Shown: positions 2,924 to 62,658, counted from the whole stretch's first letter. The stretch is DNA of 63,974 bases, filler included, from an uncultured Myxococcia bacterium (GCA_964617105.1; 3 parts of 3 records of this genome joined end to end with filler, not necessarily neighbours in it), one strand, 5' to 3'. Program-made: numbers and translations. Notes: generated by a model not told the origin, from the letters alone.

Positions 2924-2929
2924 CTGCTG

Positions 2930-4075: not shown

Positions 4076-4077
4076 GG

Positions 4078-5280: not shown

Positions 5281-5282
5281 GT

Positions 5283-6539: not shown

Positions 6540-7580
6540 CTATTTTCTAATCTTTTTTCTATATTTGGCGTACGCGCCATATTCCAAATAGATCTGGTTT
6601 TTATCTAAATAGTCGGTGGTCTTAGGAGCCAGGTCGCGCACCTGGTCTATCATATCGGTGACTTTCCAAATAAAACCGTCACTACCTGAACCAGAACCGT
6701 ATGAAACCATCAGGATCAAATCTCCTGGTTTAGCAATATCCAGGGTAGAAGAGAGTCCCAGGGGTGAGGCGCCGGAATAGGTATTACCCAATCTGGGAGA
6801 GAGCCATCCTGGTTCCATTTGCTCATCTTTGAATCCCAGTTTGCGGCCAGCCCGTTGAGGAAACTTACCGTTGGGTTGGTGAAAGACAGCGTAGGTAAAG
6901 TCCGCTGGTTTCAGGTCAGCCATCTCCATTATGTTGGTGGCGCAACTCAAGGTATGTTTAAAGTAGGCTGGTTCACCAGTAAACCGGCCGGCGTGTTTGG
7001 GATAGAACTGATATTCCCGCCTCCAGAAATCTGGAGTATCGGTCATGTATGAATTGGTATGCAAACATTCGGCTATTACATTCTGCTCCCCAAAAATATA
7101 ACTGGCAGCACCAGCAGCAGCAGAATACTCCAGAGCATCACCAGGGGCCCCCTGTGAGGTGTCTGCTCCTATTCCCAGCCCGTATTTTACCTCTCCCGCT
7201 TTAACCAGGCTCATACTGACAAACATCCCCTCTGAACCAGCCTTACAGGCAAATTCAAAGTCGGCGCAGTGGATATCCGGAGTGGCGCCGATAGCTTCTG
7301 CCACTACTGTCCCACTGGGTTTAACAGCATAGGGATGTGATTCGGAACCGATGTAAATTGAACCGATATCTGTGGGGTCGATTTTAGCCCGTTTGAGTGC
7401 GTTACGAGTGGCTTCTACTGACATGGTGATTACATCCTGGTCAGGACCGGGCACTGATTTTTGTTTTAACAGCAGCCCCTTTTTGTAACTGGGAGCATCC
7501 GCACCCCACACCTTGGCGATCTCTTCCACTTTAATGCGGTACTTGGGGATATAACTTCCGTATCCGACAATTCCGACCAT
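6540..7580 (-). CDS. mvaS: Hydroxymethylglutaryl-CoA synthase, archaeal-type
   Basis: GIVGYGSYIPKYRI, GSESHPYAVKPS, EFACKAG (catalytic Cys), DTPDFWRR, GRFTGEPAYFKH, FHQPNGKFP, GNTYSG, SYGSGSGSD. Length 346 aa, as in the archaeal enzymes. Confidence 0.93.
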   Translation of the reverse strand: MVGIVGYGSYIPKYRIKVEEIAKVWGADAPSYKKGLLLKQKSVPGPDQDVITMSVEATRNALKRAKIDPTDIGSIYIGSESHPYAVKPSGTVVAEAIGATPDIHCADFEFACKAGSEGMFVSMSLVKAGEVKYGLGIGADTSQGAPGDALEYSAAAGAASYIFGEQNVIAECLHTNSYMTDTPDFWRREYQFYPKHAGRFTGEPAYFKHTLSCATNIMEMADLKPADFTYAVFHQPNGKFPQRAGRKLGFKDEQMEPGWLSPRLGNTYSGASPLGLSSTLDIAKPGDLILMVSYGSGSGSDGFIWKVTDMIDQVRDLAPKTTDYLDKNQIYLEYGAYAKYRKKIRK

Positions 7581-36050: not shown

Positions 36051-37460
36051 TCAGGCTAGATTGTTCCACAACCGGCAGATCAACTCCGCATTTCTCAAGG
36101 AAGTTCCGGTTAAGTTCTTAATCTGTTCCCGGGTCTTATCTCCAAATCGCTGGGTTCTTTCTGGTTCCATCAACATAAGGCTAACCTCTTTTTCAAGGGC
36201 TTTCATATCAGCGGCCATAATGGCGCCACCCTGCAAAAGCAAATCTCGCTCCAGAATAAAATTATCCATGTAAGGGCCAAAAAGGATAGGCAGGCCCCAG
36301 GCGGCCGCTTCCAGAGGATTTTGACCGCCCCGTTTACAAAAACTCCCACCGATTATGGCCAATTGGGCGGCGCCGTACAGGGTGGCCAACTCTCCAATGG
36401 TGTCAATGATTATGGCCTCCCGGGGTTGGCTGGATTTTTTCTGACGCAAACCGGTTAGTAGATGGGTAATTATACCCTGGGCTGTCAATTTTTCTTTGAT
36501 TTTCCGGGCTCTTTCCGGGTACCGGGGCGCCACTAAAAAGCGCAGATGATCAAATCGCTGATGCAGCCGCCGGCAAAGGACAATGAGCCTATCCTCCTCA
36601 TCAGTATGGATAGAGCCAAACACCACCACTGTATTCTCACCACGCTGCCACCCGCTCAAGGATAAAAAATCGTTCAACTTTTGTTCATCAGCACCAGAAA
36701 CGCAATCTGCAACACTGCCACGGATAACCAGATTATCGTATTTGCTGTTGCCGGTGACTATCACCTTTTTTCGGGTAACGCCCAACTCTTGAGCCAGACT
36801 GGCGTCCATCTCGGTTCGGGACAGCACCAGGTTGGTCATCTCCAACAGGTTGCCTGTGACTTTAAAAAGAAAAGAGTAGCCCTTTAGTCGTTTAGAAGAG
36901 AGGTGGAGGTTGTTGATCACCACCGGGCATCCGCGGCGCCGTGCTTCCCAGATCATCAAGGGCCAAAGTTCAGTGTATTCCAGGATTAAAATTTGGGGTT
37001 GAAAATAATCAAACAGGTTTTTGACCGCGCCTCTCACTTCAAAAGGGGTAAAAATAGTCTGATGGGCTCCGGATAATTTCCCAGCCATGGCCAGGCCACT
37101 TCTGGTCTGGGTAGAGAAGACAAATTTGGCTGAGGGAATTTTTTTCTTCAACTCCTTCAACATTGGATATACGGCAGCTACATCACCTGCCGATGCCGCC
37201 TGCACCAGAATATTTACCGACTGGATAGCCGGCTCACTTTTTCGGCTATCTTGTGAGAGCCTAACATCTGCTGGCTGACAGAGTCTCTCTGTTTCCATTG
37301 AGGAAGATTTGTTTTTATCACAGTAAAAGCCAAACCTCTCCCGCCAGCGGCCGCGCAATTTTGGGGTAAACAAATAGAAAAGCATTATGGGAATAAGGAG
37401 CAGGTATCCTATTATAATGTATAGTTGCCGCCCCACAATTATAGGGATTCTTCTACCCAT
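36051..37460 (-). CDS. waaA: 3-deoxy-D-manno-octulosonic acid transferase
   Basis: WRERFG, AAS.GD, TELWP, TGNSKYD, GS.H.DEE, APRYPER, DTIGEL, GGQNPLEAA, FGPYMDNF. Confidence 0.93.
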   Translation of the reverse strand: MGRRIPIIVGRQLYIIIGYLLLIPIMLFYLFTPKLRGRWRERFGFYCDKNKSSSMETERLCQPADVRLSQDSRKSEPAIQSVNILVQAASAGDVAAVYPMLKELKKKIPSAKFVFSTQTRSGLAMAGKLSGAHQTIFTPFEVRGAVKNLFDYFQPQILILEYTELWPLMIWEARRRGCPVVINNLHLSSKRLKGYSFLFKVTGNLLEMTNLVLSRTEMDASLAQELGVTRKKVIVTGNSKYDNLVIRGSVADCVSGADEQKLNDFLSLSGWQRGENTVVVFGSIHTDEEDRLIVLCRRLHQRFDHLRFLVAPRYPERARKIKEKLTAQGIITHLLTGLRQKKSSQPREAIIIDTIGELATLYGAAQLAIIGGSFCKRGGQNPLEAAAWGLPILFGPYMDNFILERDLLLQGGAIMAADMKALEKEVSLMLMEPERTQRFGDKTREQIKNLTGTSLRNAELICRLWNNLA

Positions 37461-37822
37461 TGGATCACTTTATTGGCAATTTCCAGTGCTTCAATATAGT
37501 CATCTTCAGTCACCGGATCATATTCGCCAGGATACCTGGTTTCCACAGCAAATTCTGTCATGGTTTTTGATTCGAGGACAAATTCTGGTATTTTGACGCC
37601 TTTTTGTTCAAGTAATTCGATAAGATAAGCAATATCGTGTGTTTTTGGAAAAACGATCTCATTTGCTATGCATAGTGCTTTTAATGCTTTTTCCACTCCC
37701 TGTTGAGCATCAAAACAAATATCTTCAAAAAATATCTCATCAGAAACCTGGCCTGCATTGGCCTTAGCAAGATTACTCTTTGCTCTTTGCATCCATTTAG
37801 TAATTTTATCAAGGTTTTTCAT
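37439..37822 (-). CDS. HEPN domain protein (partner of MNT)
   Basis: W..RA..NL, CFDAQQGVEKALKA, PKTHDI..L, TRYPG. Confidence 0.88.
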   Translation of the reverse strand: MKNLDKITKWMQRAKSNLAKANAGQVSDEIFFEDICFDAQQGVEKALKALCIANEIVFPKTHDIAYLIELLEQKGVKIPEFVLESKTMTEFAVETRYPGEYDPVTEDDYIEALEIANKVIQWVEESL

Positions 37823-38129
37823 AAACTACTCTTCCTTTGTCTGCTGCCTCTTTATAGATGAGATAAGGATCGTTTTTTAATATCTCAAAACGCTCTAGAT
37901 CTGCGACAATAACATCCACTGGGGCACCAATATGATGGAAGTTACGGTAGATCTTTTTGGTCAGTGTTCTTTTATCTTTCAAATTCTGTTTTAGCACCAG
38001 CAAGTCCAAATCACTTTCTTTGTGAAACTGATCAGTTGCTCTTGAACCAAATAAAATAATTCTATCTGGTTGGGCTACCGCCACAATAGTTGAGATGGCT
38101 TTTTGTAAAGGTTTAAATATTTCTGCCAT
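37809..38129 (-). CDS. Minimal nucleotidyltransferase (MNT)
   Basis: IILFGS-X10-DLD motif, VDVIV, G.VVYE. Overlaps the HEPN gene. Confidence 0.9.
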   Translation of the reverse strand: MAEIFKPLQKAISTIVAVAQPDRIILFGSRATDQFHKESDLDLLVLKQNLKDKRTLTKKIYRNFHHIGAPVDVIVADLERFEILKNDPYLIYKEAADKGRVVYEKP

Positions 38130-38249
38130 TTTAATCTGCCTAGTTGAAATTGATAGAAAACCAAAATATAATTTATTATGATATTATTTTGATAATCTGA
38201 CAAGAGAAAATTGGGAATTCAACTGCATCTACACAAGAGAACTATTTTG

Positions 38250-38927
38250 ATGGAAAACCTAACAGAAAAAATTCGAATTATGCGGCGGGGGAGGATGGAA
38301 AAGATGGACAACCAGGCCTTATCCAACCTGATTGGTGCTTATAAAGAAATTTTAATAGACCTGGGCACCGGGGATGCCCTTTTCCCCTATCGCCAGGCCA
38401 AAGAGGACCCAAACTTGCTCTGTTTAGGTATCGATCCGGTGGCCGAGGTCATGAATAAAACTTCTAATCGGATTGGGCGTAAACCTGCACGGGGCGGAGT
38501 GAACAACCTTTTGCTGATGGTGGCCAGCCTGGAATCTTTGCCGCAAGCATTAAAGGGTTCGGCTCAGCGGTTGACTATCAATTTTCCCTGGAGCGCTCTC
38601 CTCCGCTTCCTGGTGGAGCCGAATCTGCCAATGCTGCTCAGATTACGCTCTTTGTTAAAACCAGAAGGCCAAATGGAAACCTTGCTCAATTTACAGGTTT
38701 TCAAAGATGACCAATACCGCCAGCGCCTCAACCTGCCCTGGCTGGATATGGAATATGTTAACACCTCGCTAAAGCCGTCCTGGAGCAAATGCGGTCTGCA
38801 AATAGAACACCTGAAACTGCTGGGGCCAGGTCAACTCCCAATACGCACCAGTTGGGGCCAGCAACTGACCATGGGCAGCAGCCGCGACACCATGTATCTC
38901 CGGGCCAGGGCTATTTTGGCCATCTAG
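38250..38927 (+). CDS. 16S rRNA (adenine-1408-N1)-methyltransferase, NpmA/KamB family
   Basis: IDLGTGD, GIDPV, KPARGGVNN, ESLP, FPW..LL and TSW..L..G..R, colinear with the remembered NpmA motifs IDLGTGDG, GIDPV, KPSKGGLSN, AESLP, FPWGTLL and SLWAKRL. Confidence 0.85.
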   Translation: MENLTEKIRIMRRGRMEKMDNQALSNLIGAYKEILIDLGTGDALFPYRQAKEDPNLLCLGIDPVAEVMNKTSNRIGRKPARGGVNNLLLMVASLESLPQALKGSAQRLTINFPWSALLRFLVEPNLPMLLRLRSLLKPEGQMETLLNLQVFKDDQYRQRLNLPWLDMEYVNTSLKPSWSKCGLQIEHLKLLGPGQLPIRTSWGQQLTMGSSRDTMYLRARAILAI

Positions 38928-42375: not shown

Positions 42376-45300
42376 ATGCAGCACTATTACAAATATTTAT
42401 GGCCCCTCATGGCTATCATAGTTATTTCCGCCATTTTTATTCCCCTTATAGTTTTTTTGCCCTCCCCTGACCAGCCAGTGGACAATCCGGTTAAATACAT
42501 GACAAAGCACCGGGATCACCTCGATCATTCTCACTTTTTTAATACCCCCTTAAAAAATGGACCCCAGGTTACCAGAGCCTGCCTCAAGTGCCATAAAGAA
42601 ACTGCCCGGGAGGTAATGAGCACCAGTCACTGGCAGTGGTTGGGAGATAAAGTGAAAATTCCAGGTCATAAAGAACCGATGCGCATAGGAAAAAAGAATT
42701 TAATTAATAATTATTGTATTGGCATCACCGGCAATTGGGCTTCGTGCACCTCCTGCCATGCTGGCTATGGCTGGAAAGACAATTCCTACGATTTTAACCG
42801 GCAAGAAAATGTTGATTGCCTTGTTTGCCACGACGGTTCTGGCACCTACTACAAGCAAAAAGCGGGTCTGCCCGGAAAAAAAGTGGACCTCCTTGCAGTT
42901 GCTAAGAGTGTTGCCAGGCCAAAGGGCGAAAATTGCGGTTACTGCCACTTTTCAGGAGGGGGCGGCATGGGGGTAAAGCATGGCGATCTGGATTCCAGTA
43001 TCAATTATCCTCCCGAACGGGTTGATGTTCACATGGGCAGATACAAAATGACCTGTAGCGATTGCCACAAAACCGAAAAACATCTCATTAAGGGCCGTTC
43101 CATGGCGGTCAGCGTTGATAAAAAGAACAAAGTATATTGCACAGACTGTCATACTCAAAAGCCCCATGATGATCAGCGCCTCAATACCCATACCAACTCC
43201 ATTGGTTGTAAAACCTGCCACATCCCCCTGGTTGCCCAACGTATCCCCACCAAAACTTATTGGGATTGGTCAAAGGCGGGCCAGGACATTAAGGAGGATC
43301 CTCATAATTACTTAAAGAGAAAGGGCGAGTTTAAGTATGCCTTTAACCTGAAGCCGGAATATTATTGGTCCAATGGTACAAATTTCCGCTATATCCTTGG
43401 CGATAAAATAGACCCCGAAGCAGTTACTAAAATAAATGCGCCCCGGGGTGATATAAAAGACAATAATTCCAAGATAGACCCCTTTAAGGTTCACCGGGGA
43501 AAACAGGTTTATGATAAGAAAAACAAATATTTCTTACTGCCCACAACTGCAGGCAAAGGCGGTTATTGGCACAATTTCGATTGGGACCAGGCCTTGCGTT
43601 TGGGAGCAGAGGCCACCGGAATAAATTATAGCGGTGAATACGGTTTTGCTAAAACCGAGATGTTCAAGGCTCTCTCCCATATGGTAGCCCCCAAGAGAAT
43701 GGCCCTGGGATGTACAGACTGTCATGGAAACGATAGTCGATTCAACTGGGAAAAATTGGGCTATGAAGGCGATCCGGCCTTCAGTGGGGAACGGTATAAA
43801 ATGCACCCTCCCTTCCCGCTACTCGATGGGCAGGGAGAAAAAGTGTTACACAGCGGCGGCCCTCTATCCACCATGAAGACCTGCGGTAAATGCCACGACA
43901 CTGACTATATTGCCAGGCACAACTATCATGCCCAGGCTAGCCTTCTGAATAATGACCAAACCATCCCACCAGAAAGTGCCAGTGAAGATCTCTCTGGCCA
44001 GTGGAGACAGAGTGCCTTCAAAAGAATTAACGGGAATATGGAGGTTAACTGTCTTATCTGCCACCTGAAAAGCCCGGACAATCGGGAACGAGTTAAAGCA
44101 ATGCAAAATGAGCAGTTTGAATGGTCCATTACTGCAACCCTGGCCAATAAGGGCATTGTAAAGAGAGATTCTGCCATGCTCTGGCGCTGGCAGGAAGAAA
44201 ATTTTAACCTTGACGGCACCCTGAAAAAGGGAACGGTAAATCTTAGATCACCACAAAATGAAAATTGTGGTCTTTGCCACGGCCTGGTTCATAACGGCCA
44301 GAAGCCTGTAACCCTTGAGAAAAATCGGGCGGCAAATTGGAACTCAGCCTTTACGGGCCAGATTATTTCTCCCCAGAACATCTTTGATTCCGGCCTGAAT
44401 ATCAAAGGAAAAAAACAATTATCCAGACCCTGGGATATCCATGCCGCCCGCATGCTCAATTGCACCGCCTGCCACCATTCTTTAAACAATCCCTTTTACA
44501 ATTACCCGCAACAGAACTCGAGAACAACAACTCTCAGCCACTTGATCTACGACCGCCGGGGGATGAATATAAACAAATTTTTATACCGACCCAGCCACCA
44601 GTTGGTTACTGGACAGAGTGCTAAAAAAACAGCGGCAGAACAATTTAGAGGGACCATGGGAGACTGCAGTACCTGCCATGATGCCCAAAAAGTGCACCAG
44701 TGGCTGCCATCCAAAGAACGCCACCTGCAAAAACTCAACTGCCAGGCTTGCCATGTTTCCAACCTCTACGCCCCTGCTCTGAGGCAAGTTGACTGGACCG
44801 TTATCAATAGAGAGGGAAAACCGCGGCTGGAATTCAGGGGTATTGAAGAGAATAGTGCAGCATTGAACTCTTTACAGACGGGTTATGCTCCTTTCCTGCT
44901 GCCACGCCAGGAAATATCCTCCAGGATTGCCTTGCATCCCTATAATCTGGTTGGGACCTGGTATTGGGCGGCGGGAAAAGAGGAAGGGCCCATCAATACT
45001 AGTTTATTAAAAGATGCTTTTTTGGAAAATGGCAATTACCGGCGGGTGGTCATGGATACATTTGATAAAGATGGCGATGGGCAATTGAACAGCAAGGAAT
45101 TGAAACTTGACACCAAGAAAAAAATCGAGGTAATCAAACAGAGGTTTGAACTGCTGGGTCTTAAAAATCCACAGATTAAAGCAAAACTCGAACCTTTTGA
45201 CGTTAACCATGGGATTTCCAAAGGCGCCTGGGCCATAAAAGAGTGTCAAACCTGCCACCAGGGCAAATCGCGCCTGGAAGAATCCATTGCGCTGGGTTCC

Positions 45301-45538
45301 TTTGCTCCTGGTAATATTATTCCAGATCTCCCCAAAGATACCAACCTCATGCTGGCTGGAAATTTTTCTTTTTCTGAAGAGGGTTCGCTATCTTTTAAAC
45401 CAGAGTACGATACCAAACATCTCTATATCTTTGGGCATTCCCGATGGATATATCTCGATATCTTAGGATTACTGCTGCTGATAATGCATTTTCTGGGAGC
45501 CTTTGCCCATGGAGGATTACGTTTTTATTGGGCCCGGG
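42376..45538 (+). CDS. Multiheme cytochrome c: octaheme tetrathionate reductase (Otr)-like domain + 7-heme domain + start of a membrane domain; 3' truncated
   Basis: 15 CxxCH motifs; Otr-like GKKNLINNYCI, KHGDLD, DVHM, WDWSKAG, PFKVHRGKQ.YD and SHMVAPK; EF-hand-like DKDGDGQLNSKE; terminal TM helix ending AHGGLR. Confidence 0.88.
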
Positions 45539-45638
45539 NNNNNNNNNNNNNNNNNNNNNNNNNNNNNNNNNNNNNNNNNNNNTTAATTAATTAANNNNNN
45601 NNNNNNNNNNNNNNNNNNNNNNNNNNNNNNNNNNNNNN
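45539..45638. other. Artificial scaffold linker
   Basis: 44 N + TTAATTAATTAA + 44 N. Confidence 0.95.
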
Positions 45639-48600
45639 GACGGCAACTTTGTGTGCACTGAAAATCCTTTGGAGGATGTAACTGACGCCAGTTCCAACCT
45701 GATTGGAAAACGGGGCGGAAGTTACTGCCATTACCAGTGTATTAGCCAGCGAGAGAGTTGTGATGGTATTGACAACGATTGCGATGGCAAAATAGACGAA
45801 GGCTGCGGGCAACTGGATCCAGAAGCCCATATTGGTAAAGAGTGCGCTGATGCTTCTCAGTGCCAGAGTCTGCACGGCCGCTTGAGCCTGTGTGTGAAAA
45901 GTAAACCGGAAGATTCCATGGGGGTATGCAACATCCCCTGCCAACCAGGCGGTTTTGAATGCAGCAACCTGATAAGTGCTGACCATATGTGCACTCAGGT
46001 GGCTGGAGTTAATTTTTGCAGCACCAAGTGTATGAACAATCACGAATGCCGCGACCATATGGTCTGCCAGAAGGACAATAATGGCCGGATGGTTTGCCTG
46101 CCTGGCGTCAAGACTGACCAGGATGGTGATGGTTATTCTCCGCCGTTGGACTGTGATGACAGCAACGCCGATCTCAAGCCAGACAACTATGACAGTTGTG
46201 ATGGCATTGACAACGACTGCGATGGGAAAACCGATGAGGACCAGGGCCACATAGACTGTGGAGAGGGAGAGTGCCGGGTGACAGTACCTGAATGCGTGGA
46301 TGGTAAAACCAATCAATGCACCCCGGGAGAGCCAACAACTGAAACCTGTGACGGACGCGACAACGACTGTGACGGCCAGGTTGACGAAGATGCCGGCTGC
46401 GCTCCAGTTATTGGCAAAAGTTGCACTAGTGACAGTGACTGCGGAATGCATTTAGGAACCAAATCGGTTCAGGCCAGTTGCCTGGAAAGTGATGGCCAAA
46501 AGATCTGTATCCTCAAAAACCCGGGCTGTCCCAAAGAGGGCTGTCCAAGCAATACTATATGCTTGAAAGATCGGATTTTGGATGAAATTTGTCTGCCCAA
46601 TTGTGATCCTACCGGTTGTGCCATCCCAGGAGAATTCATCTGCCAGCCCAATTTTGAAAAAGATTTCTTTTGCTGGCGCAAATGCCAGACCAATAGCGAT
46701 TGCCAAATCTATCTGGCGGATGAAAACAAAACCATAAATCTGGTCTGCAGCAGCAGCGGCCAGTGTTTTCCGCCTTGCGATGTCTCCAGGGGCGACAATT
46801 GCCCTATCGGCGATTCCCAGAATACCGGCAGTTTTATCTGTATTGGTAAAGAAATACAAGATGTATTGGATAGCAACAACCAGGTGCTCGGCCAACGAGG
46901 CGGCGACCATTGTATCAGACGCTGCCTGGAGGATAAAGACTGCGGTCCCAATATGTTCTGCAATCACAAAATAAAGCGGTGCCTGGGCACACCTTGTAAT
47001 AGTGATGAAGAATGCGGTAGTGATTATACTTGCAGTAACTACAAATGCGTATTCTTCTGCGCCAACAATGAGGAGTGCCGGCCCGGAGAGATCTGCAACA
47101 CCACTGATAGCAGGTGCCATCAAAAAGATTGCCTGAACACCCTGGAATGCCCTATGGGCTCCTTCTGTGATCTGACCGATAAAAAATGCCGGCCTGGAGT
47201 AGTTGAAGGATGTAAAGATGATGGCGATTGCGCTTCAGATCACTTCTGCGACCAGTACGAGCACCTTTGTAAACCCAGGTATTGCAAACTAGAGTCCGAC
47301 TGTGCCGAAGGATTTGTCTGTGAAGATGGCAGCTGCCACCACACAATGCCTGCCTGTAAAACCGATGAAGATTGCGGAACAGGCAATAACTGTCAAATTG
47401 CATTTGGTGCTACTGAAGGCGAATGTCACCCCAAACCCTGTGAACAAGACTCTGATTGCGGCGAAAATGCCCGCTGTCAACGCTCTGCCCATATCCCTTT
47501 CACATCTGGGGGTAGTGCAATGGAGGTCTTCNNNNNNNNNNATATCAAACAGTGCCGTTTCTGGTGCAATACTAACGACCAGTGTTCTCCAGGTGAGTTC
47601 TGTGACCATGCTGACAATCACTGTAAAAAAGAGATGATCCCCAGATGCGGTAAAGACACCGACTGTTTCCTTGATCATTATTGTCAGATTGAAGCGGGGA
47701 ACAGCCAGGGCGAGTGCAAAGTAAAAGCCTGCACCACTGATACCGAGTGCCGCCAGGGTTCAAAATGCAACCTTGACACCAAACATTGTTACCCCTATTG
47801 CGACCTCAACAATACCTGTCCGGAAACCTATTTCTGCAACTTTGAGGAGCAGCACTGCTTTAAAGGCTGTAAAGCCGATGGAGATTGTCCGGATGCAGAA
47901 AATGGTACCAGTTTCTGCAATATGATTTTGCACACCTGCCAGCCGGGCAAAGCCCAGTGTTACAGAAATAGCGACTGTGCTGCCAACAACTATTGCGATC
48001 TTAGAGATCTTACCTGCAAGCCCTTGAATTGCCAAGTGAATGCAGATGGCACCAGCGACTGTCCGACCGGAGAGATGTGCGACCGGGTGGATTACCAGTG
48101 CCGCCCCCATCAAAGATGTACAACTGATGCTGACTGCGGCCATATGTTGTATTGCGACCAGGCTAACAGTACCTGTACCTACAAAGCCTGTTCTGACACA
48201 GAAAAATGCAGTGAAGGATTTGTCTGCGATACTACCAAAAATATCTGCCAGCCCACTGCCTGCCAGGAAGACAGCCAATGTCTGGAACACCATTTCTGCG
48301 CTGTAGATATGGGTTACTGTCTGCCCCGCAGCAAAAGACCTTGCACAGAACACCAGGAGTGCCAAAGTTGGGAACGCTGCCGGATATATACAGTGGATAC
48401 CACGCTGATCCGTTTGTGCGTCAATGCCCATTGCCAGGCAGATGAGGACTGCGGGCCAGGCGCGGTTTGCAACCTGGATAAAAATGGTTGTGAACTAACC
48501 AAATGCGCATCCAGCCAGGATTGTGATCCCGGAATGTTCTGCGATCCCCAGGGACGCTGCCTGCACCAGGGGCCAAAACAGTGTTCCGCCACCAGTGAGT

Positions 48601-50777
48601 GCAACAGTTGGGAGGAGTGTAAAAAGGATGAAAATAGCCTCTCTGACACCAACACCTACTGTCTGCCTAAGGGCTGCACCACCGACTCTGACTGTGGTGC
48701 TGACGGCGCGGTTTGTGATCAGGCAACTAAAACCTGCCATTCCGGCACTATCCAACCTGGATGTAAAGTGGATTCCGATTGCACCGACGATCACTTCTGT
48801 GATCAGGCTGATAATCAATGCAAACCAAAGCAGCAACACACCTGCACGGAGGACAGCCAATGTCCATCAACCCATGGGTGTGATCCCAATGACAACAAAT
48901 GCTGGCCCAAATGTAATGTGGACAACGACTGCCCGGCGGGATTGTCCTGCAATCCAGCCAGCAAATTGTGTGTCTGGTATTGTGATCCCCAAAGTGCCAT
49001 CCAGTGTGACACCAGTACCGTCTGTATTCCAGTTGAGCCCAAACACTCGCCAACCGGCGGTTTTTGCTTTAAAAAATGCGATCCTGCTCTTACCGATCCC
49101 GGCTGTAAAGCAGGCGTTGACAATGTAGGCGAAATTTGTTTATCCATTGGCCAGGCTGGCACAAATGTTTGTGTGCGCAAATGTACCACCAATGATCAAT
49201 GTCCCACCGACAATGTTTGCGATCCTGGCACTGGACAGTGTAATCCCACCGGACCGCCCAAATGCGCATCCAGCACCGAGTGCAACAGTTGGGAGGATTG
49301 CCGCACAGATGAAGCCAACCCTGCTGACACCACCACCTACTGCCTGCCGAAGGGCTGCACTGACGACACGATTTGCGGAACCGATGCTCTTTGCATGAAG
49401 GAGAATGGAGCCCAAACCGGGCACTGCAACCCCAAATGCCAACGCAATGAAGATTGCCCGCCGGATCACACCTGCGACCCCAACACCAGCATGTGCAAGC
49501 CACCAGAACCAGTCTCCTGTGCCAGTGATGGTGATTGTGCAACTGACCACTATTGCGATCAGACTGATAATCAATGCAAACCCAAACAGCCCACCTGCAC
49601 TGAGAACAGCCAGTGTCCATCAACTAACTATGGCTGCGATCTCACCGATAATAAATGCTGGCCCAAATGTGATGTGCCCGCCGATTGCCCCGCTGGACTA
49701 AGTTGCAATCCAAACACCAACTTGTGTGTCTGGTATTGCGATCCCAATGGTTCTAATCAGTGTGACACCAATACCGTCTGTATTCCAGTGGATACCACAT
49801 ACTCACCCACTGGCGGGTATTGCCTGAAAAAGTGTGATCCTGCTTTCACCGATCCGGGTTGCAAGATGGGGTCTGACAATTGGGGTGAAGCCTGTATTAC
49901 CCTTGGACAAAATGCGATAAATGTATGTGTAAGGAGATGTAAATCCGACTCAGAGTGCAGACCCGGTGTTTGTGATATAGCAACCGGTAAATGCGGCCCG
50001 GCCGAACTGCCCAAATGCACCGACGGCACCGAGTGCAACAGTTGGGAAGAGTGTAAAAAAGATGAAAACAACCTCTCTGACACCAACACCTACTGTCTGC
50101 CTAAGGGCTGCACCACCGACTCTGACTGTGGTGCTGACGGCGCGGTTTGTGATGAAACAACTAAAACCTGCCATTCCGGCACTGTCCAACCTGCATGTAA
50201 CGTGGATTCCGATTGCACCGCCGATCACTTCTGCGACCAGGCGGACAATCAATGTAAACCCAAACAGACCGCCTGCACGGAGGACAGCCAATGTCCAACT
50301 GACCACTTCTGCGATCAGGCTGATAATCAATGCAAACCCAAACAGACCGCCTGCACTGAGGACAGCCAGTGTTACGAAGGCTTTGTTTGCGAGCAGACCA
50401 CCAAGAAGTGCTGGCCCAAGTGCGATGTTGACACCGATTGCCCGGCTGGACCAACTTGCAATCCCGACACCAATATCTGTGCCTGGTTCTGCACTCCTGG
50501 ACAGATGAACCAGTGCGATGCTAATACCTTGTGTGTTCCGGTTACTACAAATATTTCACCCACCGGTGGAATGTGCTTGAAAAAGTGCGACCCGACCAAT
50601 CCAACTACCTGCAAAACCGGCATAGACCGAGTTACCGAGGTCTGCCAGCCCTGGACTACCGGAGAAGCCTTTTGTAAACCGCCATGTAAAGAGGACAAAG
50701 ATTGCGACGATGGCTCAAATAGTCTTATCTGCAACGATGCCACCGGTCTATGCGAGGCTGGTACGGGTGGGTTCTGA
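45639..50777 (+). CDS. Giant cysteine-rich repeat protein (5' truncated, internal gap at 47532-47541)
   Basis: Open frame of more than 1700 codons, three CDG(I/R)DNDCDG motifs, a DQDGDGY..DCDD motif and dozens of CxxDxDC-type modules. Confidence 0.85.
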   Translation, partial: DGNFVCTENPLEDVTDASSNLIGKRGGSYCHYQCISQRESCDGIDNDCDGKIDEGCGQLDPEAHIGKECADASQCQSLHGRLSLCVKSKPEDSMGVCNIPCQPGGFECSNLISADHMCTQVAGVNFCSTKCMNNHECRDHMVCQKDNNGRMVCLPGVKTDQDGDGYSPPLDCDDSNADLKPDNYDSCDGIDNDCDGKTDEDQGHIDCGEGECRVTVPECVDGKTNQCTPGEPTTETCDGRDNDCDGQVDEDAGCAPVIGKSCTSDSDCGMHLGTKSVQASCLESDGQKICILKNPGCPKEGCPSNTICLKDRILDEICLPNCDPTGCAIPGEFICQPNFEKDFFCWRKCQTNSDCQIYLADENKTINLVCSSSGQCFPPCDVSRGDNCPIGDSQNTGSFICIGKEIQDVLDSNNQVLGQRGGDHCIRRCLEDKDCGPNMFCNHKIKRCLGTPCNSDEECGSDYTCSNYKCVFFCANNEECRPGEICNTTDSRCHQKDCLNTLECPMGSFCDLTDKKCRPGVVEGCKDDGDCASDHFCDQYEHLCKPRYCKLESDCAEGFVCEDGSCHHTMPACKTDEDCGTGNNCQIAFGATEGECHPKPCEQDSDCGENARCQRSAHIPFTSGGSAMEVFXXXXIKQCRFWCNTNDQCSPGEFCDHADNHCKKEMIPRCGKDTDCFLDHYCQIEAGNSQGECKVKACTTDTECRQGSKCNLDTKHCYPYCDLNNTCPETYFCNFEEQHCFKGCKADGDCPDAENGTSFCNMILHTCQPGKAQCYRNSDCAANNYCDLRDLTCKPLNCQVNADGTSDCPTGEMCDRVDYQCRPHQRCTTDADCGHMLYCDQANSTCTYKACSDTEKCSEGFVCDTTKNICQPTACQEDSQCLEHHFCAVDMGYCLPRSKRPCTEHQECQSWERCRIYTVDTTLIRLCVNAHCQADEDCGPGAVCNLDKNGCELTKCASSQDCDPGMFCDPQGRCLHQGPKQCSATSECNSWEECKKDENSLSDTNTYCLPKGCTTDSDCGADGAVCDQATKTCHSGTIQPGCKVDSDCTDDHFCDQADNQCKPKQQHTCTEDSQCPSTHGCDPNDNKCWPKCNVDNDCPAGLSCNPASKLCVWYCDPQSAIQCDTSTVCIPVEPKHSPTGGFCFKKCDPALTDPGCKAGVDNVGEICLSIGQAGTNVCVRKCTTNDQCPTDNVCDPGTGQCNPTGPPKCASSTECNSWEDCRTDEANPADTTTYCLPKGCTDDTICGTDALCMKENGAQTGHCNPKCQRNEDCPPDHTCDPNTSMCKPPEPVSCASDGDCATDHYCDQTDNQCKPKQPTCTENSQCPSTNYGCDLTDNKCWPKCDVPADCPAGLSCNPNTNLCVWYCDPNGSNQCDTNTVCIPVDTTYSPTGGYCLKKCDPAFTDPGCKMGSDNWGEACITLGQNAINVCVRRCKSDSECRPGVCDIATGKCGPAELPKCTDGTECNSWEECKKDENNLSDTNTYCLPKGCTTDSDCGADGAVCDETTKTCHSGTVQPACNVDSDCTADHFCDQADNQCKPKQTACTEDSQCPTDHFCDQADNQCKPKQTACTEDSQCYEGFVCEQTTKKCWPKCDVDTDCPAGPTCNPDTNICAWFCTPGQMNQCDANTLCVPVTTNISPTGGMCLKKCDPTNPTTCKTGIDRVTEVCQPWTTGEAFCKPPCKEDKDCDDGSNSLICNDATGLCEAGTGGF
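48580..50760 (+). repeat. Three long intragenic tandem units (about 0.7 kb each) in the Cys-rich gene
   Basis: GAGTGCAACAGTTGGGA recurs at 48597, 49278 and 50031. Positions 48597-48829 and 50031-50263 are near-identical at the DNA level. Confidence 0.85.
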
Positions 50778-56167: not shown

Positions 56168-56812
56168 TTGACAATCCTCTTATTTAAAAAGGAGCATATT
56201 TTGTCGGCATTTACAAATTATAAACGTCGTATATATGTGGTGGACAAGGAATCACAAATAAAATTTACCATAATTACTATTGGGTCACTGGTATCTTTCG
56301 CTCTGCTGGTAGTTCTTATCATCTGGCTTCCCAGTTACCTGGCCCCTCTGTCGGAATCTGACGCTGGATCAAAAGTTATAGCCCAGGAATTCTCCCACCT
56401 GGTGGAAGGAGAAATTATCCCGGCTACTCTGGTTTTTCTGTTACTGGTCAGCCTGTTTACCATTTTTCATACTCATAAAATTTTCGGGCCGGTGTATCGT
56501 TTCCAACATTCTACAAAACGACTGGAAAACGGGGACCTGAAATTCTCTATTGTATTGAGAAAATGGGACTACTTGAAGGGGCTGCAAAACTCTATGAACA
56601 GTTTTATCTCCTCTTTGCGTAATAAAGTTATCAGTATGAAAAAATCGGTCAGCCAGTTAAACCAGGATTTAAATAATCTGAAAATTAGCATGGCCAAGGG
56701 TGAATTAAACCAAGAACACATACAGATAAAACTTGACAGTATTGCTAATCATATCAATAAGTTAGATAAGCATCTAGTCGAATTTAATGTTGATGAGGAG
56801 GACAAGTCCTAA
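56168..56812 (+). CDS. Small two-TM HAMP-domain protein (start codon uncertain)
   Basis: KRRIYVVDKESQIKF, two TMs, THKIFGPVYRF, LRKWD, coiled coil. Same architecture as 32412-33095. Confidence 0.72.
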   Translation: MTILLFKKEHILSAFTNYKRRIYVVDKESQIKFTIITIGSLVSFALLVVLIIWLPSYLAPLSESDAGSKVIAQEFSHLVEGEIIPATLVFLLLVSLFTIFHTHKIFGPVYRFQHSTKRLENGDLKFSIVLRKWDYLKGLQNSMNSFISSLRNKVISMKKSVSQLNQDLNNLKISMAKGELNQEHIQIKLDSIANHINKLDKHLVEFNVDEEDKS

Positions 56813-57670
56813 ATGATACGATACTTTGTAAAATCGCTTTTATTGACAATCTTTGGTGGATATATCCTGTTAAGTTCTCCTCTTCTAAGCGCAGAAGATC
56901 TTTCTCCAGAGGCTATTGAAGCAACCAAAAATATTGCTTCTGGTCAGGATAATCCTAACCCTGCTGCCGGCAATATCCAAACCGAGCAAAATCTGGTTGA
57001 GCAAGCGGTTATTGCTTTTAAAAACCGGGAAGATTTAGACCAGGCTCAAAAAGGGATACAACTATACGGACAATTACTGGAACAGAACAGGGATAAAATT
57101 TTATATTGGAACCGGCTGTTACGGCTATACTGGTGGTATGGTTCACATCTGCCCAAAAACGACCCCAATAAAGTAATTGTTTTTAAAAAAGGGCTTAGTA
57201 AGGCGCAAGAGATGGTTAGATTAATTCCCCGGGAACCCTTTGCCCACATGTGGGTTGGCGTCCTGTTAAGTTCCTGGGCAATGGAAAAAGGGTTAATAAA
57301 TGTTTTAACCAAGTTAAGCGCCATTCGAAAAAATTTTGAGAAAGCGGTATCTCTGGACCCAAAATTTTCCTGGGGACACCGTTTGATAGGCAGATGTTAT
57401 AGAGATGCCCCGGGTTGGCCCCTCTCTTACGGCGATATGGATAAAGCTTTTGCCTATTTTTCCAAGGCCCGGGAATTTAATCCCCAAGACTTGCGTATCT
57501 ACCTGGATATGGCTATTGCCTATCATAAAATCAAAAAATGGGCCGAAGCAAAAAAATGGGCTAAAAAAGCGCTTGATATGCCAATAATCACTGATTCAGA
57601 TATAGCAGCCGAGCACCGGGAAGCCAAGGAGCATGCCAAAGAGATTTTTAACATATTGAAATCAAAGTAA
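56813..57670 (+). CDS. Exported TPR-repeat protein
   Basis: Signal peptide, TPR-like helices (FEKAVSLDP, AFAYFSKAREFNP), GR.Y..APGWPLSYGD. Confidence 0.75.
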   Translation: MIRYFVKSLLLTIFGGYILLSSPLLSAEDLSPEAIEATKNIASGQDNPNPAAGNIQTEQNLVEQAVIAFKNREDLDQAQKGIQLYGQLLEQNRDKILYWNRLLRLYWWYGSHLPKNDPNKVIVFKKGLSKAQEMVRLIPREPFAHMWVGVLLSSWAMEKGLINVLTKLSAIRKNFEKAVSLDPKFSWGHRLIGRCYRDAPGWPLSYGDMDKAFAYFSKAREFNPQDLRIYLDMAIAYHKIKKWAEAKKWAKKALDMPIITDSDIAAEHREAKEHAKEIFNILKSK

Positions 57671-57675
57671 TTAAT

Positions 57676-59619
57676 GTGAAAATAAAAAAGGTACAACCAA
57701 TTGTTTTTACCCCGCCGGGAGATTCAATTTTCTATCAACTTGGTCTCAAAGCCGGACTGGAAGTCCATCAACAGTTAAATACCTTTAAAAAACTATTCTG
57801 TCATTGTCCGGCCAAATTAATAAACCATCCCCATAATGTTGAAATTCTACGCCACATGCGTCCTACTCTTTCTGAGTTAGGTGAATATGATGGCACTGCC
57901 CTTATGGAGTTCAAGACTAAGAAAGAAATAATTTATCAATTATATAACGATGTGGTATGCACCTACGAAATGGACGATACTCCACCTTTTTTGCTGAACC
58001 AGCAAGCGCTTCAATTCGCCCTTGAAATAGCTATGCTCTTCGACTGTAATATTGTTGATGAAATCCATATCAGCCGCAAGCAATACCTGGACGGCAGTAT
58101 CCCCACCGGTTTTCAACGCACTGCTATTGTTGGTATCAATGGCAGTTTTCCTTTGGACAACGCAGATAGAAAAAGGGTACATATCTGGCAACTGGGTTTG
58201 GAAGAAGATTCCTGCCGGGAGGTCAGTAACCAGGGACACACCATTGTTTTTAAAACCGACAGGCTCTCCATACCCCTGGTGGAAGTGGTGACCGCCCCAG
58301 AGTTAAAAACCCCAAAAGAAGTTTTTTTGGCGGGTGAACAAATCCGCCGAGTGCTTAGAGCCTCGGGCAAAGTCAGGCGAGGTGCAGGCGCTGCCCGACA
58401 GGATGTTAACGTCAGTATCAAAGGTGGCAGCCGGGTAGAGATCAAGGGAGTGCCCAGTACCAAACTGATCAGTAATCTGGTAGCTAGTGAGGCGCTGCGC
58501 CAAAAAGCCCTGTTAGAGATCCGTGACTCTCTGCGTTCTCGGGGAATAACCAAAAAAACCCTCTCTGCCATGGTTGGCGATCTGAAAGAGTTATTTAAAA
58601 ATACCAAAATCAAAATTATCCGCCAGGCTCTTGAACAAGGTGGAACCGTTAAGGGAATCAAACTGGTAGGTTTTGGCGGTCTATTCTCCTACCCCACTCA
58701 GCCGGGGCTCAATTTTTCCTTCGAATTTTCCGAAAGGGTACGCGTTATCGCTTGCCTTGATCAGAAGCCCAACCTGATCCATACCGATGACCACCTCTTT
58801 TTCAAACGGCGTAAACGGGACCTGAAAAAGATACAGGAGTTGTTTAAGGCCAGGCATGTAGATGTGGTAGTTATAGTTTGGGGAAATGAAGAAGATGTAA
58901 ACACCGCTATTGAAGAGATTCGTCTCAGAGCCCTGGATGCCGCCTCTGGCGTACCCAATGAAACCAGGACCGTCCTGTCAGACTGCCAAACAGGTTTTGA
59001 GAGGATACTGCCGGGACCGAATCGGATGTACCCTGACACTGATTTGCCCCCTTGCGCCATTGATGAAAAACGGATAAAAGATACCCGGGCCAACCTACCC
59101 CTTACCCCCTGGGCTCGCCGAAAAAAATACCAGAACCAATTGAACCACCACCTGCTGGACATTATGGAACTATCTCCCTGGCAGCATCTGGTCGATTATC
59201 TAATAAAACACTGCTCTTTAAACCCAATTTTTGTGGCTTCAACTATTCTGGATAGATTTCGCTGCCTGACCAGGAAAGGTTACCAAATAGAAGAGATTAA
59301 ACCCGATGATCTACTGATGGTTTTCAAAGAGGTGGAAAAGAAAAAAATCTTGGCTACAGCAGTTATACCAATAATTAAAAATATCCTACAAAATGGGACG
59401 GATGTGCAAGAAGCCCTTGGAGATAAAAATTTTAAGCCGGTGAGCATTACCAAAACCAAATCCTTTCTTCGAAAAAATCTTTCCGATTGGCTCTCCGAAT
59501 GCTTCTCAAAACAAAAAGAGGCCCAACATCGCTTTCTGATGGGTAAAATCATGCACCAGTATAGATACCGGGTGGATGGTAAAAAACTCTCTCAGATAGT
59601 AGAAGACTCGCTTGGCTAA
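57676..59619 (+). CDS. gatE: Glu-tRNA(Gln) amidotransferase subunit E
   Basis: GLKAGLEVHQQL, RPTLSELGEYD, EMDDTPP, DGSIPTGFQRT, LEED, DRL.IPLVE, RQDVNVSIKGG.RVEIKGV, central insertion domain, GVPNETR, PG..RMYPDTDLPP. At 647 aa it is too long for GatB. Confidence 0.9.
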   Translation: MKIKKVQPIVFTPPGDSIFYQLGLKAGLEVHQQLNTFKKLFCHCPAKLINHPHNVEILRHMRPTLSELGEYDGTALMEFKTKKEIIYQLYNDVVCTYEMDDTPPFLLNQQALQFALEIAMLFDCNIVDEIHISRKQYLDGSIPTGFQRTAIVGINGSFPLDNADRKRVHIWQLGLEEDSCREVSNQGHTIVFKTDRLSIPLVEVVTAPELKTPKEVFLAGEQIRRVLRASGKVRRGAGAARQDVNVSIKGGSRVEIKGVPSTKLISNLVASEALRQKALLEIRDSLRSRGITKKTLSAMVGDLKELFKNTKIKIIRQALEQGGTVKGIKLVGFGGLFSYPTQPGLNFSFEFSERVRVIACLDQKPNLIHTDDHLFFKRRKRDLKKIQELFKARHVDVVVIVWGNEEDVNTAIEEIRLRALDAASGVPNETRTVLSDCQTGFERILPGPNRMYPDTDLPPCAIDEKRIKDTRANLPLTPWARRKKYQNQLNHHLLDIMELSPWQHLVDYLIKHCSLNPIFVASTILDRFRCLTRKGYQIEEIKPDDLLMVFKEVEKKKILATAVIPIIKNILQNGTDVQEALGDKNFKPVSITKTKSFLRKNLSDWLSECFSKQKEAQHRFLMGKIMHQYRYRVDGKKLSQIVEDSLG

Positions 59620-59642
59620 AGTGAATTCTCGGACGGTAACTA
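59619..59642. repeat. Family B element half-site between convergent genes
   Basis: AAGTGAATTCTCGGACGGTAACTA, matching 28341-28361 and 50814-50837. Confidence 0.6.
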
Positions 59643-59643
59643 A

Positions 59644-62600
59644 CTATTCAGATAAAACCTGATGAAAAAAACTGATGTATCTGTCTGCCACGTTGTCTAT
59701 GTCCAGGTGAGAGAGATTGAAAGTAAAATCATTAGCCATCTGTTCCCGGATTAAAGCCGCACAACGTTTAAAATCCAACCGGGGTGGCTGATAGAGATCA
59801 TGAGGTTGAAAATCCCAGGAAGTATCGGGCAAAACTATTCCCGACTCTTTTACCAACTCCCTGGTCCCGCCTGAATCTGTGCAGATTACCGGTGTTTTGG
59901 CTGCCAACGCTTCAACCACCACATTGGGACAGTGATCCAGCCAGGCCAGATGAAAAAAGAGATCCGCAATCAGATAATAGAGTTGCAGTTGTTCGGGCCT
60001 CACCATGCCTAAAAACTTAATACGCGGGTCTTTATCCGCATAGTCAGGATTACTGCCAGCCACAAAGAGTAAAGAGTTAGGACTGGCTACCAGTTTAAAC
60101 AGGCGGCAAATATCTTTTAAACGTTTATGGGGCCGCCAATGAGAACAACAGAGAAAAATCCAATCAAATTTACTCTTTAAAGATATCTGTAATTTTTCGC
60201 TTTCCTCGAGCAGTGGCTCTGGTTTGCTGAGTTCAATACCATTGTTGATAACAGTACTCTGTGAATGGGAGCCAAAATATCGCTCTACTAACTTTTGATT
60301 GAATTTGGATTGAAAAATAACACCATTAGAGTATTGGTAAGTAGCCTGCAAGCCTCGATTCATCCGCTGGTAGTCTTGCCTGGAATTAAACCAGAGCCCA
60401 TCCAGTCGCTGAACCATTTTCACTCCTGGTTTGGGCTTTTGGGGTGACTCGATAAAAGCCAGCAGGATATCGTGATCCTCACTATAATCTACCGTTTTAA
60501 CCCCTTTTTTATCTAATCCGGCCGCCAAACGGCTGGCAAATAGATTGGGCCCTGATATCTCCTTTAAATTTACATTGGCAAAACAGACCCTCAGAGGCTT
60601 TCCATTTATATATGGACCAGCCTTCTTTATCACCCTGGTTGAACGCAGTTGATGCCCAATAAAACCTCGGGAACGGATTATATTTACTGAACGAATCTGT
60701 TCATCCACCATTTTAAATGAGGTGTCGGTAAGGTTATATTGATAACAAACCTGGGGGATAAAACGCTTTTCTTCAGCCAGGTATAGTATAGGCAACATTA
60801 GTGCCTGATCGTATCCCCGACGAAACCAGTAACCCTGGGGATGTTTGAAATTATCCTGATCCACCTGAGAATAGATCGATTTTAAAAAGGTCCGAAAATG
60901 GGAGGAAACCCAGGGATGCTGGTATGGATCTACGTTCGCTGGAACCAGGGGGGCAGAAATATTTCGACCATCAATATTCCATTGATGAGCCGTCCAAATA
61001 ACCTCTGCACCCTTCTCATACTCTATCTTTACCAATTCCAATGCCTGAGGATGGCAAAAAAAATCGTCACCGTCAACAGTTCCTATAAGGGCTCTATCCG
61101 CTGGATATTCAATGCTGTCAATGGCATCGCAGATATTGTGCAAAGCCCATTTTTTACGCTGGTTTATGGTTACCATAACCCTGCTGTCCTGCTCAGCTAT
61201 GGCCCTGGCCTGCTCCGCTGTTCCATCAGTGGAAAGATCGTCGATAATATGCCACTGCCAATTTTGCCATGACTGCTCCTGTAAACTCGAATAGAGCCGG
61301 ACCAGCCCTTTTTCTGAATTATAACAGGCCGTGATAATAAAAAACTTAAAATCCTCAGTGCTGCGGCCCTGGAGATCAGGGTCTAAATTTCTGTATTCCT
61401 GCTTCACTGCCCGATTTTGCTCTGTTAATGGCCCAGGTGCATCTTCCTGAAAATCATCGCTTTTGAACTTATAGATAACTGGCAACTCTTTTAGTTTTTG
61501 AAAAAGAAAATGCTCTTTTGGCTTCTGGTTTTCTATTTTATCGGCAACAAACCCCACCGGCTCAATATCTTCGAAAGTTTCACTGTTGATCAGTTCTGCC
61601 GCCCCTATTAAAGAGTAATCAGCAAATAAAGCACCATACTTGTCAAAATTTCTATGCTCTTTTGGAACACCATGGGTATAAAAAGGCTCATTCCGGCTTA
61701 TACGAGGTTCTTGAAGATGCTCCCGATTCCACCAAGATCTCTCCGGCTCAGTTTTAGACAGGCAGGATGATATTGGCAGACAAATCAAATCAAATAGATT
61801 AGGAAAATGACGCAACATTCTTTTTATTTTGGAGATATCCTCAATCTCTATTACTTCATCCGGCTCCATCATTAAACAGAAATCACTGTTACACAGTAAC
61901 CTGGCCATCCCCCTGGCTCCGCCTTTATTAACTTCAACATTGGGGTGTTGGGAGTCAATTTTCCGTTGGAAAACCTGCAAATTATTATTTTCTCCCGCCC
62001 AATCCTGCAGCGCTTCCCAGGTACCATCAGTGGAGCCAATATCAACTATCACCACCTGGTCACAGAGATTTAGCATAGATTTAATCGATTTTTCATAGGG
62101 GATCTTTTGCGCAATACTGTTACAGGTTGTAGTATATCCAGACAGGGTTGGTTGGTAATTAACTCCAGCAATAATGATTTTGACAAACTCCTCGAGTTCT
62201 GATTCCAAACCGGTTTTGCCAGCCAAAGAGGACCATTTTTTTAGATAAACCTCTTTCAACTGTTGTGAATGGTAAAAAACCTTCTGTGCCTTCGAGATAA
62301 ATAACTCTTTTAGTCTGCCTGCACCTGTATCTGCACAATTGCACTCCTGGTTTTCAATAGCTCTATGTTGTTCATATCCGCCATATTTACAGATCCGGTC
62401 TGAATAGATAACCAAAAAATAGTTGAGGTTAAGCACTATGGTGCCCATTAATTCCGGTGCTATATCAGGAAGGTCTAAAAATATAAAATTGTTGAAGATA
62501 TTGTGCTTTAGAAAAACTGGAGTAAGAGTTGATAACTCCTTCTCCTCAAAAGAAAAATTGGGCGGAGAGCCATTTTTAAACTGTTGGATGAAATCTCTTT

Positions 62601-62658
62601 TAAGATGAAGGTTATTATCCTGACTGGAAAACAGAAAAATGATCTTTTTATTTTGCAT
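59644..62658 (-). CDS. Multi-module glycosyltransferase (N-terminal unknown region + GT2 + GT2 + GT4)
   Basis: First GT-A: VVIVDIGSTDGT...EPDE. Second GT-A: IITACYN...IIDDLSTDGT...VDGDD. GT-B: INNG, HWRPHKRL, DHCPNVVVEALA...PVIC.DSGGTRELV. Confidence 0.85.
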   Translation of the reverse strand: MQNKKIIFLFSSQDNNLHLKRDFIQQFKNGSPPNFSFEEKELSTLTPVFLKHNIFNNFIFLDLPDIAPELMGTIVLNLNYFLVIYSDRICKYGGYEQHRAIENQECNCADTGAGRLKELFISKAQKVFYHSQQLKEVYLKKWSSLAGKTGLESELEEFVKIIIAGVNYQPTLSGYTTTCNSIAQKIPYEKSIKSMLNLCDQVVIVDIGSTDGTWEALQDWAGENNNLQVFQRKIDSQHPNVEVNKGGARGMARLLCNSDFCLMMEPDEVIEIEDISKIKRMLRHFPNLFDLICLPISSCLSKTEPERSWWNREHLQEPRISRNEPFYTHGVPKEHRNFDKYGALFADYSLIGAAELINSETFEDIEPVGFVADKIENQKPKEHFLFQKLKELPVIYKFKSDDFQEDAPGPLTEQNRAVKQEYRNLDPDLQGRSTEDFKFFIITACYNSEKGLVRLYSSLQEQSWQNWQWHIIDDLSTDGTAEQARAIAEQDSRVMVTINQRKKWALHNICDAIDSIEYPADRALIGTVDGDDFFCHPQALELVKIEYEKGAEVIWTAHQWNIDGRNISAPLVPANVDPYQHPWVSSHFRTFLKSIYSQVDQDNFKHPQGYWFRRGYDQALMLPILYLAEEKRFIPQVCYQYNLTDTSFKMVDEQIRSVNIIRSRGFIGHQLRSTRVIKKAGPYINGKPLRVCFANVNLKEISGPNLFASRLAAGLDKKGVKTVDYSEDHDILLAFIESPQKPKPGVKMVQRLDGLWFNSRQDYQRMNRGLQATYQYSNGVIFQSKFNQKLVERYFGSHSQSTVINNGIELSKPEPLLEESEKLQISLKSKFDWIFLCCSHWRPHKRLKDICRLFKLVASPNSLLFVAGSNPDYADKDPRIKFLGMVRPEQLQLYYLIADLFFHLAWLDHCPNVVVEALAAKTPVICTDSGGTRELVKESGIVLPDTSWDFQPHDLYQPPRLDFKRCAALIREQMANDFTFNLSHLDIDNVADRYISFFHQVLSE

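Follow-up and report, generated by a model that had tools for sequence, protein, structure and literature searches.

At positions 57676..59619 of the window, by which the whole analysed stretch of 63,974 nucleotides is meant, a plus-strand gene encodes a protein of 647 aa that was identified as subunit E of a Glu-tRNA(Gln) amidotransferase (gatE) of the bacterial-type clade. The gene has a GTG start codon, and the interval includes the stop codon. The product is a three-part chain of cradle, AspRS-like insertion and YqeY tail. Its GatB/GatE catalytic (cradle) domain (57748..59076, plus strand, residues 25-467) was detected with Pfam PF02934 at 175.8 bits and is split by the AspRS-like insertion (GAD-like) domain (58618..58908, plus strand, residues about 315-411), for which the Pfam GAD match of 18.7 bits is under the cut-off of 23.4. 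The YqeY-like C-terminal tail domain (59203..59613, plus strand, residues 510-646; Pfam PF02637, 42.6 bits) is helical in the structural model. The insertion domain is the feature that sets GatE apart from GatB, and it aligned throughout to both archaeal GatE chains used for comparison. Foldseek additionally returned weak, partial matches to AspRS chains, which fit an insertion domain of this type.

Two further plus-strand genes lie upstream of gatE, one for a 214-aa protein (56168..56812) without a Pfam match and with a hydrophobic segment judged by eye, and one for a TPR protein of 285 aa (56813..57670). Both are regarded as context only, and the TPR protein is not a conserved partner of gatE. 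The preliminary description had placed gatE 5 bp downstream of an exported TPR gene; the 5-bp gap on the plus strand is exact, while the export comes down to an N-terminus that resembles a signal peptide by eye. Downstream, after a gap of 24 bp, a convergent glycosyltransferase gene (GT2+GT1, 1004 aa; 59644..62658, minus strand) occupies the position in which relatives usually carry gatD. A conserved partnership of gatE with the TPR, 214-aa, DUF2229 or glycosyltransferase neighbour was considered and rejected, as no homolog was found in 111 loci (E <= 1e-5). Promoter and terminator scans around gatE gave sites that were no more common than in shuffled sequence, and no tRNA genes were found within the window. 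A tRNA-Gln gene was near gatE in none of the 60 loci examined; among these, locus L002 is the sole case with a tRNA-Glu gene, about 200 bp upstream of gatE.

The gene content of the window is bacterial and includes a Kdo transferase, a heptosyltransferase, an OmpA-domain protein, FtsE/FtsX, M23 and S41 peptidases and a bacterial topoisomerase; further genes encode HisRS, class I fumarase and multihaem cytochromes. This agrees with the initial observation that gatE is set among the genes of a Gram-negative-type host. For HisRS, no relative with more than 53 % identity was found, and its named matches are scattered across Phycisphaerales, Latescibacteria, Kiritimatiellia, Lentisphaerae and KSB1, which points to a deep, poorly sampled lineage as the source organism.

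Besides gatE, several other genes in the window were recorded. A 238-aa protein encoded at 38211-38927 (plus strand) matched Pfam NpmA (16S rRNA adenine-1408 N1-methyltransferase) with 194.6 bits against a cut-off of 60; judging from its sequence, it appears to be an rRNA methyltransferase of the aminoglycoside-resistance type, encoded by a bacterium from the marine environment. Adjoining HEPN-domain (127 aa) and nucleotidyltransferase (106 aa) genes at 37439-38129 (minus strand) have the usual HEPN/MNT toxin-antitoxin layout. The genes for a ChsH2/DUF35-type OB-fold zinc-ribbon protein, a thiolase and an HMG-CoA-synthase-like protein (4888-7580, minus strand) adjoin enoyl-CoA hydratase, biotin carboxylase, carboxyltransferase and biotin-carrier genes at 3-4875, and this trio and its neighbours may form a branched-chain acyl-CoA or mevalonate-linked module. 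A Cys-rich ORF of 1708 aa with MopE-type metal-binding motifs (45651-50777, plus strand) lies beside the gene for a 1072-aa multihaem cytochrome (42376-45594); numerous overlapping antisense ORFs at 45651-50777 suggest repetitive, GC-richer sequence.

The region was found in eight marine or seawater metagenome runs (X1-X8) from two studies, and the list of matching runs contained no RNA run. The TPR/gatE junction is covered by contigs of X1 and X2 (both 57564-58168) and of X3 (57484-57870), the gatE/glycosyltransferase junction by a contig of X4 (59332-59747), in each case with 0 differences. The GC content across the region is unremarkable. With both junctions bridged in public assemblies from two studies, the chimeric join with an archaeal contig that had been considered at the outset was not observed. 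This bridging is not fully independent, since the best-matching runs may be the window's own source samples. A further contig of X3 agrees with the window on the glycosyltransferase side, beginning at 59641, and carries, upstream of this position at the gatE end, sequence unlike the window; it may stem from a related strain with a different neighbour at 59641.

Identity, intactness and placement of the protein

The reading of the gene as a full-length, 647-aa GatE was correct, and the segments cited for it are present in the translation (RPTLSELGEYD at residues 62-72, DGSIPTGFQRT at 139-149 and GVPNETR at 425-431). The proposed comparison of GatE and GatB profile scores was equally clear. Both NCBIfam GatE equivalogs were passed, with 555.4 bits for NF003107 (cut-off 456) and 505 bits for TIGR00134 (cut-off 319.55), whereas all six GatB equivalog models (TIGR00133 and NF0040xx) failed with 87-178 bits against cut-offs of 315-680, the best of them reaching 177.6 bits at a cut-off of 338. 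Residues 19-645 align continuously to the GatE chains 1zq1_C from Pyrococcus abyssi (345 bits) and 2d6f_C from Methanothermobacter thermautotrophicus (333 bits), and GatB chains scored at most 108 bits in the same structure-sequence comparison. An AlphaFold2 model based on a 70-sequence alignment has a mean pLDDT of 94.6 and a pTM of 0.91. For this model, Foldseek ranked the two archaeal GatE entries first (TM 0.81-0.84 on the target), followed by GatB chains and then by the partial AspRS matches.

The conservation of the protein was assessed on 160 columns that are at least 95 % conserved in 84 relatives, 155 of which are kept. The five changed positions are D185N, V219A, L337F, Q432T and G437C; at position 185, all 84 relatives have D and the window protein has N. 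In a leave-one-out control, the relatives lost a median of 1 and a maximum of 14 conserved columns, compared with 5 for the window protein. Furthermore, 49 columns are invariant in 70 sequences, the window protein included, that were drawn from both score tiers described below. The best non-self identity is about 52 % for GatE and 53 % for HisRS of the same organism. Since the two proteins diverge to a similar extent, the long branch of the window GatE is attributed to an isolated lineage rather than to decay, and the ceiling of about 52 % is in line with a deep, poorly sampled host lineage. The window gene is a real, intact, bacterial GatE.

A scan of species-representative genomes returned 446 GatE relatives. 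The best 80 of these are all bacterial-labelled, with labels including KSB1, Calditrichia, Ignavibacteria, Latescibacterota, Zixibacteria, Aminicenantes, Myxococcota, Planctomycetota and Elusimicrobia, and five of them come from closed chromosomes. When 1.84 billion cluster representatives were searched exhaustively, 603 matches at E <= 1e-30 were obtained, which fall into two tiers, one with 40-55 % identity at about 440-620 bits and one with 31-38 % identity at 390 bits or less. Bacterial source names fall in the upper tier, and the clusters labelled Heimdallarchaeota and Thermoprotei have 40 % and 37 % identity, respectively. No relative more than about 52 % identical to the window GatE was found in the genome, cluster-representative or named-protein searches. 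The genome of the nearest GatE relative (P0025) is itself not among 401 sampled genomes of the phylum of genome G002 (best match 52 %), and the metagenome contigs obtained with P0025 as query are generic clade members that reach at best 50 % among the matches listed.

Two trees were used for the placement of the protein. The first, an IQ-TREE tree of 85 rows, contains the window protein, 78 of the 80 genome loci and six named proteins; L024 and L062 were dropped because they are shorter than 600 aa or cut by a contig end. Here, the window protein and two MAG proteins, labelled Deltaproteobacteria and Myxococcota, form a group (SH-aLRT 99) within a subclade of 14 rows (SH-aLRT 99); the branch of the window protein has a length of 0.74 compared with a median of 0.25. 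The second, a FastTree tree of 147 rows, is composed of 27 hand-chosen rows, 118 of 150 representatives (590-700 aa) and two named cluster members. In this tree, the window protein and every bacterial locus fall together in a clade of 59 rows (support 100), which is separate from the 31-38 % tier with the Thermoprotei-labelled cluster. The Heimdallarchaeota-labelled cluster is sister to the bacterial clade (99), an arrangement that depends on the root we chose at the Thermoprotei-labelled pair. The initial view that an archaeal gene had newly been transferred to a single lineage was thus not upheld, as the window GatE belongs to a large bacterial-type clade whose members already carry the name GatE in databases. 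This clade is known in the sense that it is already annotated, and it is overlooked by reviews.

Three proteins labelled Thermoplasmata or Thermoplasmatota (P0003, P0049 and P0054) nest in the bacterial-type clade in both trees, and one of them originates from a 5.16-Mb contig. A length of 5.16 Mb is large for Thermoplasmata/Thermoplasmatota. Either the label is wrong in these cases, or gatE was transferred back to archaea.

Linkage and co-occurrence of gatE and gatD

No gatD was found in the whole 64-kb window, which extends from gatE by 57.7 kb on the upstream side and by 4.4 kb on the downstream side: the lowest E-value in a tblastn search with five bacterial GatDs was 0.045, and 0 of 40 window ORFs scanned with Pfam were asparaginase-like. 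The absence of gatD beside gatE, noted already in the preliminary description, therefore stands. For comparison, the position of gatD was determined in the best 80 of the 446 genome relatives' loci, with flanks of up to 10 kb, and in 80 metagenome loci, with flanks of up to 6 kb, which were gathered with P0025 as query among the matches listed. In 64/80 genome and 63/80 metagenome loci, gatD lies immediately downstream on the same strand. Rarer arrangements are a downstream gatD that has the same orientation but lies at least 400 bp away (4/80 and 2/80, respectively), a downstream gatD on the opposite strand (2/80 and 1/80) and a divergent upstream gatD (0/80 and 3/80). In 5/80 genome and 6/80 metagenome loci, gatD was missing although the downstream sequence was 1.5 kb or longer, and the contig was too short to place gatD in five of the 80 loci in either sample.

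Of the 75 determinable loci in each sample, 70 genome loci and 69 metagenome loci thus include gatD, and gatE is unlinked in 5/75 and 6/75, that is about 7-8 % or roughly one in thirteen. Separation from gatD is the sole special feature of the window gatE. Of the five unlinked genome loci, L042, L006 and L010 belong to the 14-row subclade of the window GatE, as do the two loci with a convergent gatD (L003 and L013).

The co-occurrence of both genes was examined at the genome level, with GatD called by TIGR02153 at a cut-off of 324 bits. Each of the five genomes with an unlinked gatE has an above-cut-off GatD on another contig. Among the five genomes with a short gatE contig, GatD is above the cut-off in four and present as a contig-end fragment in one. 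All five closed GatE genomes have GatD. In the phylum of G002, GatE occurs in 53 of 401 sampled genomes, and GatD was found in 52/53 GatE-positive and 0/348 GatE-negative genomes; in the lone GatE genome without GatD (G019), gatE is cut by a contig edge. In the bacteria sampled, gatE and gatD behave as a near-obligate pair.

Since every genome with an unlinked or unplaced gatD has GatD and the two proteins are paired so consistently, the window organism most likely has a gatD outside the 64-kb window, by analogy with its relatives. Of the three options offered initially, namely gatD elsewhere, a different ammonia donor or a new role, the first is the state of every comparable genome (10/10 without gatD in the locus).

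Across phyla, GatD is far more conserved than GatE (loci L001-L080 and L081-L085): the bacterial GatDs are mostly about 70-89 % identical to five reference GatDs, and the GatE sequences of these loci share a median of 53 % identity in pairwise comparison.

Gln-tRNA routes and the role of bacterial GatDE

The window gene is best explained, with a probability of roughly 0.8, as a functional GatE of a bacterial-type GatDE whose partner gatD is located elsewhere in the genome, outside the 64-kb window. GatE would serve as the tRNA-binding kinase/amidotransferase subunit of this enzyme. On the model of the archaeal enzyme, GatD would be expected to supply ammonia taken from an amide donor, with which GatE would amidate a mischarged aminoacyl-tRNA after activating its side-chain carboxyl. 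Glu-tRNA(Gln) is the most probable substrate, and GatDE would probably work beside GlnRS and not in its place.

The charging genes of GatE-bearing bacteria were compared on closed genomes and on genome samples of two phyla. In the five closed GatDE genomes, GlnRS, AsnRS and AsnB are above their cut-offs in 5/5 and AsnA in 0/5, whereas GatB passes in 2/5 and GatA in 1/5. A need for GatDE in making asparagine found no support, as AsnRS and AsnB passed in all five. The co-occurrence tests in the two phyla describe the class from relatives' genomes and ignore phylogeny and MAG incompleteness. In the G002 phylum, GlnRS was found in 48/53 GatE-positive and 292/348 GatE-negative genomes (p = 0.30), and GatB in 18/53 and 245/348, respectively (OR 0.22, p = 6e-7). 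One GatE-positive genome of this phylum (G412) has neither GlnRS nor GatB. In the phylum of G001, GatE occurs in 90 of 113 genomes sampled; GatB was found in 58/90 GatE-positive and 19/23 GatE-negative genomes (OR 0.38, p = 0.13), and GlnRS in 79/90 and 8/23 (OR 13.5, p = 8e-7). Here, none of the 90 GatE-positive genomes lacks both, and all 11 without GlnRS have GatB.

GatE-positive genomes with neither GlnRS nor GatB thus amount to 1/143 in the two phyla. As GatDE is the sole visible route to Gln-tRNA(Gln) in at most this one genome, the distribution argues against a replacement of GlnRS or GatCAB. The suggestion that GatDE is a stand-in Gln-tRNA route is not supported at the class level, with GlnRS in 5/5 closed genomes and in 48/53 and 79/90 of the GatE-bearing genomes of the two phyla. 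In the G001 phylum, GatE is close to a core gene; GatE-negative genomes are mostly without GlnRS (15/23), and 13 of these 15 have GatB, which suggests that this phylum holds two alternative charging-gene sets.

Only 25 tRNAs were obtained from the closed genome G004; among them, the two tRNA-Gln genes and tRNA-Asn all carry U1:A72 and G73. As tRNA-Gln carries U1:A72 and not A1:U72, the specificity of the bacterial enzyme may differ from that of archaeal GatDE. Tentatively, and with less than even confidence, bacterial-type GatDE, the window copy included, could be regarded as a separate activity that is kept alongside GlnRS and does not stand in for it. Such an activity may consist in clearing Glu-tRNA(Gln) produced by a relaxed GluRS or in amidating another tRNA with a U1:A72 end.

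Three other explanations of the locus have to be weighed. An assembly artefact, in which an archaeal gatE fragment was joined to a bacterial contig, would suit the description of GatE as archaeal in the review literature, but it is extremely improbable because the X1/X2/X3 and X4 contigs cross the two junctions without differences, the GC content is unremarkable, the genes are tightly spaced (5 bp and 24 bp) and the protein lies among bacterial GatEs, outside the 31-38 % tier. A very unlikely explanation is an orphan GatE in a lineage that lost gatD, with GatE acting either without a partner or on ammonia from elsewhere, for example free ammonia or that released by a different amidase. The lack of gatD in the 64-kb window, the convergent glycosyltransferase in its usual position, the long branch and the five departures at highly conserved positions are compatible with such a loss. 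However, GatD accompanies GatE in 5/5, 10/10 and 52/53 genomes, with the one miss at a contig edge, and the window GatE keeps 155 of 160 conserved columns, so that an orphan is the less plausible reading compared with a gatD elsewhere.

Alternatively, GatDE may be present with a main substrate other than Glu-tRNA(Gln), for example Asp-tRNA(Asn) or another target, and thus have a role other than Gln-tRNA supply. This is unlikely overall, yet several results lean in its direction: GlnRS stands beside GatE in most genomes with only 1/143 lacking both GlnRS and GatB, tRNA-Gln and tRNA-Asn of G004 share U1:A72 and G73, and GatB is rarer in GatE-positive genomes of the G002 phylum. Against it, the GatB trend is weaker and not significant in the second phylum (p 0.13), and the presence of AsnRS and AsnB in all five closed GatDE genomes leaves no visible need for tRNA-dependent Asn synthesis. 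A functional GatE with gatD elsewhere in the genome and Glu-tRNA(Gln) as its most likely substrate is therefore preferred.

Comparison with known systems

[quoted passage not shown] Despite this archaea-only statement, GatDE occurs in 90/113 and 53/401 genomes of two bacterial phyla, usually together with GlnRS. Among the papers listed since 2014, none was on bacterial GatDE by title, with subscription journals outside the search. This distribution raises the question of what purpose a tRNA-dependent amidotransferase has in cells that charge tRNA-Gln directly and how it reads U1:A72, and the answer bears on the evolution of the Gln and Asn charging routes. The window gene alone is one more bacterial GatE, notable for its separation from gatD and for its poorly sampled marine lineage.

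The closest characterised counterparts in structure are the archaeal GatE proteins (1ZQ1 and 2D6F), which share the cradle, the AspRS-like insertion and the YqeY tail with the window GatE, align over the full length and reach TM values of 0.81-0.84. In contrast, their Foldseek sequence identity to the window protein is 33-37 %, and the window host is bacterial. Similarly, identity to the window protein is 31-38 % for the lower-tier representatives, 37 % for the Thermoprotei-labelled cluster and 40 % for the Heimdallarchaeota-labelled one. Archaeal GatDE, according to the same passage of PMC9499178, reads A1:U72, whereas the one GatDE-bearing bacterial relative examined (G004) has tRNA-Gln with U1:A72. 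The bacteria with GatDE usually also have GlnRS, while archaea, as stated there, are all without it.

GatB of the bacterial GatCAB has a homologous cradle and YqeY tail and is the next-best structural match to the window GatE. It is without the insertion domain of roughly 100 residues, and its partners are GatA and GatC instead of GatD. A further comparison is provided by the bacterial gatE-gatD operons on closed chromosomes (L009, L012, L039, L043 and L070), which belong to the same clade as the window GatE, with 43-50 % identity and clade-specific motifs in common. In these loci gatD follows immediately downstream, whereas the window gatE is followed by the convergent glycosyltransferase gene and its protein sits on a longer branch.
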